Source: Dehalococcoidia bacterium | GTDB lineage: Bacteria > Chloroflexota > Dehalococcoidia > Lucifugimonadales > UBA3495 | Direction: 5' to 3' | NCBI GenBank assembly: GCA_963422635.1 | Contig: OY730415.1 | Location: forward strand, 1,073,231 to 1,137,230 | DNA length: 64,000 nucleotides | Shown: one piece after another, positions 63,615 through 63,930 of the stretch | Numbering within the stretch: the stretch's first letter is position 1 | How the letters are laid out: each line of letters begins with the position of its first letter | Notes under the pieces: generated by a model | Database searches by the model: none | What the model was told of the DNA's origin: nothing | Seen by the model: only the letters and a program-made list of their open reading frames with translations | Program-made: the position numbers and the translations under genes

Positions 63615-63930
63615 CTAGGCCTTCAGGTAATCCTCCCCCACGTTCCGCGGGGCGCCCAAAGAGGGCCAAAAAGTCGGCCCGGCGGTACCATCCTCCCCCA
63701 CGTTCCGCGGGGCGCCCCCACGGGCATTCAGAAACTGCTGATATTCTCCGACTCAACCCAATCGGGCAAAGGGCGCCCCCACGGGCATTCAGAAACTGCC
63801 GCAACTCTTCAACGCTTTCAGTCAAGTAAAAGGTAATCGCCACCGGATTAACTTGGTGAATTGGCGAGCCGTCGGCGCTTTCCCCCTCCGACCCTCGCCC
63901 CGCTTCATACTGAGCCACGGCTCGGTTCAA
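63615..63930 (-). pseudogene. small ORF whose 3' end is interrupted by units S3/S4
   Basis: TTG start at 63930. Removing the 61-nt S4 unit puts ...EELRQFLNARGGAPRNVGED...YLKA and TAG (63615-63617) in frame. Confidence 0.35.
63630..63799 (+). repeat. two overlapping repeat-insert-repeat units S3 (28+32+28) and S4 (29+32+29)
   Basis: S3 is ATCCTCCCCCACGTTCCGCGGGGCGCCC at 63630 and 63690. S4 is GGGCGCCCCCACGGGCATTCAGAAACTGC at 63710 and 63771. Confidence 0.95.

Follow-up and report, generated by a model that had tools for sequence, protein, structure and literature searches.

What kind of event could have left the same short segment of DNA in two copies around a piece of unique sequence, and have done so at two overlapping positions near the 3' end of a small open reading frame (ORF)? 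This question is raised by positions 63630-63799 of the window, i.e. the whole 64-kb stretch of DNA that was analysed here. The window is ordinary Dehalococcoidia chromosome: a MaoC-domain protein neighbouring one of the loci discussed below is 84% identical to its best GTDB match, which comes from a Dehalococcoidia metagenome-assembled genome (MAG), and the window genes scanned with Pfam are metabolic and transport genes. A preliminary description of the locus had proposed two units with periods of 60 and 61 nt that overlap by 8 nt, and both the coordinates and the identities of the copies are confirmed base by base. The first unit, termed E5, comprises a 28-nt segment at 63630-63657 (+; ATCCTCCCCCACGTTCCGCGGGGCGCCC) with CCCC at positions 6-9, which forms an imperfect palindrome, CCCCACG-TTC-CGCGGGG; a spacer-sized insert of 32 nt at 63658-63689 (+; AAAGAGGGCCAAAAAGTCGGCCCGGCGGTACC), which occurs once in the window; and a second copy of the segment at 63690-63717 (+), identical to the first at 28/28 positions with a spacing of 60. 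The second unit, E6, comprises a segment at 63710-63738 (+; GGGCGCCCCCACGGGCATTCAGAAACTGC), likewise with CCCC at positions 6-9, an insert with 47% GC at 63739-63770 (+; TGATATTCTCCGACTCAACCCAATCGGGCAAA), also with a single occurrence in the window, and a second copy of the segment at 63771-63799 (+), identical to the first at 29/29 positions with a spacing of 61. The E6 duplication can be read as 29 nt, or as 28 nt plus one coincident base; its insert is 32 nt, or 33 nt if the duplication is 28 nt. The 8-nt overlap at 63710-63717 is both the end of the second E5 copy and the start of the first E6 copy.

Both duplicated segments had been described as starting 5 nt upstream of one motif, and CCCCCACG indeed begins 5 nt inside each of them. 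When duplicated copies are discounted, CCCCCACG is found four times in the window, and two of these four ancestral sites were targeted, both at the E5/E6 locus. The earlier impression that the same motif had been struck twice is thus borne out, in that both occurrences of CCCCCACG at the locus were used, with the boundary falling exactly 5 nt upstream each time. The reconstructed empty site reads ATCCTCCCCCACGTTCCGCGGGGCGCCCCCACGGGCATTCAGAAACTGC between the flanks ...GGTA and CGCAAC..., and consists of two pseudo-sites 20 nt apart (positions 1-28 and 21-49) with CCCCCACG at positions 6-13 of each.

The two units lie at the 3' end of a small orphan ORF (63547-63930, -), in which E5 is in frame (+20 aa, i.e. 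20 codons) and E6 is a frameshift; without both units this ORF encodes 64 aa and ends at TAG. The preliminary description had argued from the clean stop that is restored upon removal of the 61-nt unit. Its minus-strand translations are reproduced exactly, the ORF ending in FLNARGGAPRNVGEDGTAGPTFWPSLGAPRNVGEDYLKA before the stop without the 61-nt unit and in FLNARGGAPRNVGEDYLKA before the stop without both units, but as an argument on its own the restored stop is weak, since the small ORF has no credible homologue and cannot be shown to be a gene. A word-indexed search for its homologues returned none, and the HMMER matches to its 53-aa N-terminus were a mixture of unrelated proteins (Ig, RCC1, Nup98), which we read as compositional. 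With no homologue and only such unrelated matches, an argument for E5 and E6 from homology at the level of the ORF was abandoned.

The proposal that the locus records two independent insertions, each consisting of a 28/29-nt target duplication and a 32-nt foreign segment, instead finds its support elsewhere in the window, where the same geometry recurs at three other loci. The whole 64-kb window was searched for direct repeats that match exactly over 18 nt or more, at each offset between 20 and 300. Outside four true tandem arrays (periods 24, 42, 64 and 71), all repeats recovered lie at an offset of 60 or 61 and fall into six loci, namely five insert-type units (E1, E2, E3, E5 and E6) and one diverged tandem duplication (E4). 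A looser scan of the window (23/28 matches) found no further units, and 158 kb of related Dehalococcoidia loci, used as a control, contained zero repeats of at least 16 nt at offsets 55-67. E1 (5262-5350) has a 33-nt insert (5290-5322) between two perfect copies of a 28-nt segment (5262-5289 and 5323-5350). E2 (6328-6414) is intergenic and has a 28/27-nt duplication (6328-6355 and 6388-6414) around a 32-nt insert (6356-6387); it fits the 28 + 32 arrangement if one substitution and a 1-nt indel in a G-run are allowed, and is an older or imprecise unit. E3 (62950-63039) is a perfect 29-nt duplication (62950-62978 and 63011-63039) that covers the stop-codon region of another orphan ORF, around an insert (62979-63010) of 32 nt, or 33 nt if the duplication is 28 nt, with 38% GC. 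In the order E1, E2, E3, E5 and E6, the duplications are therefore 28, 28(27), 29, 28 and 29 nt, with perfect identity in four of the five, and the inserts 33, 32, 32(33), 32 and 32(33) nt. In each of the five, repetition is limited to the outer 28-29 nt, and the inner 32-33 nt are unique. The events form two clusters, one of three units in an 850-bp stretch at the 3' end of the window, the other of two units in a 1.15-kb stretch near its start. Such a distribution may mean that non-essential DNA tolerates insertions, or that there are genuine hot spots.

E4, which shows a 21-nt exact repeat at 63375-63462, was considered as a sixth unit and rejected. Here the whole 60-nt unit aligns with the next 63 nt, with 49/60 aligned positions identical; as the entire unit is repeated and the C/G-run motif discussed below is lacking, E4 was dropped from the insert set. 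The interior repeated head to tail, which is the feature of a simple tandem duplication, is absent from E1, E2, E3, E5 and E6 and is found in E4 alone. The E4 region (63375-63497) is a diverged in-frame tandem duplication (60/63 nt) within an orphan ORF (63292-63495, -), where it repeats the peptide DEYxSDEHGTDTS; its period is that of the insertion units, and its origin is different.

The reading of these units as insertions is further backed by E1, which splits a lipoprotein-like gene (4884-6018, -). The present ORF (5314-6018, -) encodes 234 aa and its stop falls within the 33-nt insert of E1, which introduces both a frameshift and the stop. Removal of 61 nt (5290-5350) joins this ORF in frame to the downstream fragment, and the resulting 357-aa protein has two similar C-terminal domains. 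The homologues P0002-P0004 (36-38% identity by BLASTP, 81-88% query coverage) align over the junction and through to the C-terminus. The removal of E1 thus rejoins a protein whose homologues run across the junction, and the units are therefore best read as real insertions with target-site duplication, a status that comparison at the protein level demonstrates for E1. It follows that the ancestral sequence of E1 contained the 28-mer once and lacked the 33-mer. Scans of GTDB genomes and JGI metagenomes with the neighbouring MaoC-domain protein yielded relatives with at most 84% amino-acid identity; no close strain, and hence no uninterrupted allele at the DNA level, turned up in these scans, and among the GTDB loci DNA similarity is confined to the MaoC genes. 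Upstream of the E1 gene body, at about 6020-6140 (-), there is a lipoprotein-type signal peptide (MLSILRLKENGGLLRYLLPLLLLPSALLLAAISCG) whose frame differs from that of the protein body, and this implies a second frameshift near 6020-6060. Hence, either the gene was a pseudogene beforehand or the assembly contains a homopolymer error.

Where might the inserts have come from? They average 49% GC as against 59.6% for the window (p about 0.009), and this low GC content suggests DNA from elsewhere. The five inserts have no common termini and no shared internal sequence, which argues against their being remnants of transposons. Against their flanks they show identity at chance level, with a single exception in E6, whose insert is identical at 14/32 positions to the sequence after the second E6 copy (uncorrected p = 0.018), and no insert has a second copy within the window. 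When the inserts were searched as exact full-length 32-33-mers (E1, E3, E5 and E6) and as exact central 22-mers (E1, E2, E3 and E6) against IMG/VR, no match was obtained, nor did blastn of all five inserts against phages and plasmids return one; the two 32-mers of the E5/E6 locus, which had been put forward for comparison with viral and plasmid sequences, thus found nothing in either collection. Related Dehalococcoidia loci contain a rhodanese-domain gene (8563-9372, +, in locus L007) whose 5' end matches a core of the E6 insert (63739-63770), GACTCAACCCAATCGG, at 16/16 nt; the matches lie at L007 8582-8597, L002 3941-3956 and L001 1722-1737. Overall, the insert and the rhodanese-domain gene are identical at 20/32 positions, and the reverse complement of the insert reads LPDWVESENI, compared with MVEFVSADWVESQLG in the relatives. 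To judge by this short match, a rhodanese-like gene may be the origin of the E6 insert, whether that gene belonged to a relative, to a mobile element or to the host.

A 28-bp duplication together with a 32-33-bp insert is the geometry of adaptation by type I-E CRISPR systems. In E. coli, the type I-E repeat is of 28 bp, GTGTTCCCCGCGCCAGCGGGGATAAACC(G), and the spacers are of 32-33 bp. Two molecular rulers have been shown to be anchored by motifs within this repeat (Goren et al. 2016; PMC5039180): IR1 (CCCCGCG, positions 6-12) fixes the distal cut 16 nt beyond it, and IR2 (GCGGG, positions 16-20) fixes a cut 8 nt beyond it (PMC5039180). All five duplicated segments have either CCCC at positions 6-9 or GCGGG at positions 16-20, with the E. 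coli repeat serving as a proxy that may not be the repeat of the host. Thus, E1 (-, CTGTT-CCCCAGG...), E2 (-, TCTAA-CCCCCCG...), E5 (+, ATCCT-CCCCCAC...) and E6 (+, GGGCG-CCCCCAC...) have CCCC at positions 6-9, with the C-run in the region of positions 6-12, and a 28-nt duplication. The E3 site (-, CGACGACCTAGGCCAGCGGGGAGACCAG) has CCAGCGGGGA at positions 13-22, which is the same as the E. coli type I-E repeat in both sequence and register. In a comparison that is partly post hoc, CCCC at positions 6-9 or GGGG at positions 18-21 in either orientation is present in 2.5% of the 28-mers of the window and in 5/5 sites. By ungapped identity to the E. coli repeat, again as a proxy rather than the host's own and again partly post hoc, four of the five sites rank in the top 1.5%. 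The window contains one palindrome of the type I-E-like form CCCCRC-N4-10-GYGGGG, and it was the target of E5. No sign of function was seen in the segments: Rfam recognized no CRISPR repeat family in the duplicated segments, at the gathering threshold and at E <= 10, hairpin folding of the segments was no better than that of shuffled sequence, and no leader motif of the kind bound by integration host factor (IHF) was found upstream of the sites.

Taken together, the units most probably arose when a type I-E-like Cas1-Cas2 integrated spacers off target (ectopically) into ordinary Dehalococcoidia chromosomal DNA; that an enzyme of this kind and subtype was at work, and that the inserts are of foreign origin, we infer from the geometry, the site motifs and the GC content described above. 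The integrase would dock on a partial mimic of its repeat, either a C-run that starts 5 nt inside one boundary or, alternatively, GCGGG ending 8 nt from the other boundary. Staggered attacks 28 bp apart would follow, a 32-33-bp prespacer would be joined in at the staggered cuts, and repair of the gaps would then produce the 28-bp duplication. At the E5/E6 locus, this would have happened once at each pseudo-site, and the present structure fits either order. E5 and E6 are two independent hits on neighbouring mimics and not the growth of a single proto-array, as growth would re-use the same pseudo-repeat. With two hits at two pseudo-sites that both contain CCCCCACG, they are therefore single-spacer scars ('neo-CRISPR' units) and not pieces of a real array. 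No CRISPR array is present in the 64-kb window. The one repeat that runs through successive units of a bona fide array is not seen, each unit having its own sequence in two copies; neither adjacent cas genes nor a leader is found within the window, and Pfam scans of its larger ORFs (about 200 aa or more, non-overlapping) and of the ORFs around both clusters detected no cas gene. Type I-E systems do occur in Dehalococcoides. Since the units have no common repeat, nearby cas genes or leader, and behave like the off-target integration seen in the laboratory, we regard them as a natural instance of a known process, one that has been shown mainly in the laboratory and is rarely documented in nature. 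Its notable aspects are the density of the events, the disruption of a gene, the double hit, and sites that each have just one repeat motif at the right distance. It is possible, if rather doubtful, that five fixed events per 64 kb are typical of the whole 2.64-Mb genome, which would then hold roughly a hundred ectopic spacers, if not more.

The integrase behind the same mechanism could belong to a different subtype whose repeats are 28 nt and whose spacers are 32 nt long, for instance type I-F, or to a type IV system that borrows a module of this kind. For E2 and E5 the period is exactly 60 (28 + 32), as is typical of type I-F, and a window without cas genes does not disclose the subtype. Against this stand the three units of 61 nt (28 + 33), the C-run or GCGGG at the type I-E ruler positions in all five sites, and the high rank of four of these sites for identity to the E. 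coli type I-E repeat; to our knowledge, type I-F repeats do not have CCCC at positions 6-9. We consider such a subtype unlikely. An origin from a mobile element or integrase unrelated to CRISPR, with target duplications of 28-29 bp and a remnant of 32-33 bp, is very unlikely. It would be in keeping with the lack of cas genes and of a native repeat in the window, with insert sources that were not found in the databases searched, with the local clustering of the events and with the insertion sequence (IS) transposase at 55890-57161. However, the five inserts do not share the terminal or internal sequence that transposon remnants would have, and the site motif agrees with the anchors of the type I-E rulers. 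Casposon duplications are about 14-15 bp, and we know of no IS or casposon that makes 28-bp duplications.

Further alternatives are replication slippage, with ordinary tandem duplications at a period of 60-61, and repeats that belong naturally to the protein of the small ORF. The former has a precedent close by in E4 (63375-63497), a genuine diverged in-frame 60/63-nt tandem duplication situated between E3 and E5, and the resemblance of the E6 insert to the sequence following the second copy (14/32) is also in its favour. Yet in a tandem duplication the unit would be repeated in full, which is the case in E4, whereas in the five units the repeat is confined to 28-29 nt (with 100% identity in four of them) around a unique interior of 32-33 nt, and the same split between repeated and unique sequence would not be expected five times. 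As for protein repeats, homologues bearing the duplicated segments in this form were looked for, and the segments occur in no homologue. These explanations are thus highly improbable. Artefacts of assembly or sequencing, such as chimeric reads or variants wrongly joined in a MAG, appear more improbable still: the G-run indel in E2 and the second frameshift in the E1 gene are possible homopolymer errors and would suit them, but the inserts match no part of the window, and no artefact known to us gives five precise 28-29-nt duplications around unique 32-33-mers at sites that share a motif.

Off-target integration by a type I-E-like Cas1-Cas2, the reading that we favour, has a direct counterpart in E. 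coli, where overexpressed type I-E Cas1-Cas2 is reported to produce what has been termed 'neo-CRISPR' (Nivala, Shipman & Church 2018, Nat Microbiol). Both cases combine a spacer-sized insert, a duplication of repeat length in non-CRISPR genomic sequence and sites that are partly repeat-like; the E. coli events needed overexpression of Cas1-Cas2, whereas here five fixed events lie in 64 kb of wild chromosome, and the evidence for off-target integration in natural genomes has been described as circumstantial. In further contrast to the E. coli case, one gene is disrupted here, two pseudo-sites overlap and no unit has more than one spacer. With canonical type I-E adaptation (PMC5039180) the units share the 28-bp duplication, the C-run at IR1 or GCGGG at IR2, and the 32-33-bp inserts, but here there is no IHF site, leader or array and there are no cas genes within 64 kb; each unit duplicates its own local sequence, and the Rfam repeat models remain unmatched. 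The Cas1-Cas2 of Pyrococcus furiosus has likewise been found to integrate off target in vitro at repeat-like sites (PMC6698737). That study resembles our case in full-site integration with repeat-length spacing at non-CRISPR sites that conserve a few repeat bases by position; there, the targets were plasmids in vitro and the repeat measured 30 bp (PMC6698737), whereas the present events took place in vivo, are fixed in a genome and have the 28-bp geometry.

The units also recall the mini-CRISPR arrays and solitary units of viruses and plasmids, in which one spacer lies between two repeats with no cas genes near. Those mini-arrays carry canonical repeats that match the array of the host; in contrast, every 'repeat' seen here is different and is duplicated host sequence, which at E1 is coding. 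Like the insertions of transposons and casposons, the inserted DNA is flanked by a direct duplication of the target. The target duplications of those elements are typically 2-15 bp, whereas the duplication here is 28-29 bp, with an insert of only 32-33 bp whose ends are not shared.

If the units are indeed precise, recent products of off-target integration by Cas1-Cas2, CRISPR adaptation has a real mutational cost in nature, motifs from half a repeat can by themselves guide full-site integration, with no need of a leader, and proto-arrays with a single spacer do form spontaneously, a point of relevance to the birth of new CRISPR loci. The target sites would moreover serve as a read-out of the ruler and the sequence preferences of the integrase. 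If the density seen here also held genome-wide, Cas1-Cas2 would act as a mutagen that needs no leader, breaking genes and giving rise to proto-arrays all the time, and the organism would offer a natural system for direct observation of the birth of CRISPR loci. In practical terms, such units can mislead gene callers and CRISPR finders.

Several other features of the window were observed in the course of this analysis. The methylase fused to an HNH endonuclease domain (33947-35167) and the IS-type DDE transposase adjoining a tRNA gene (55890-57161 and 55211-55285, respectively), the former being a DNA methylase, are the only mobile- or defence-type genes seen in it. Among the true tandem arrays, a perfect 71-nt repeat at 59392-59560 (2.4 copies, 100% identical) sits between the 3' ends of genes for a luciferase-like monooxygenase and an ABC transporter, and a 64-nt repeat at 21498-21655 (2.5 copies, 98% identical) with promoter-like TTGACA elements lies just upstream of a tRNA gene (21696-21769). 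The 42-nt (2 x 21) array at 35868-36080, with about 5 copies, lies in the gene of a ZapB/LPP-like protein (35684-36583), where it encodes a heptad-like repeat of the coiled-coil type (EEDVAALKEDVSGLK). Finally, a cluster of genes for an NHL-repeat beta-propeller, a DUF1501 and a DUF1800 protein is present twice, at 868-4588 and 14238-18126, in the same order and orientation.
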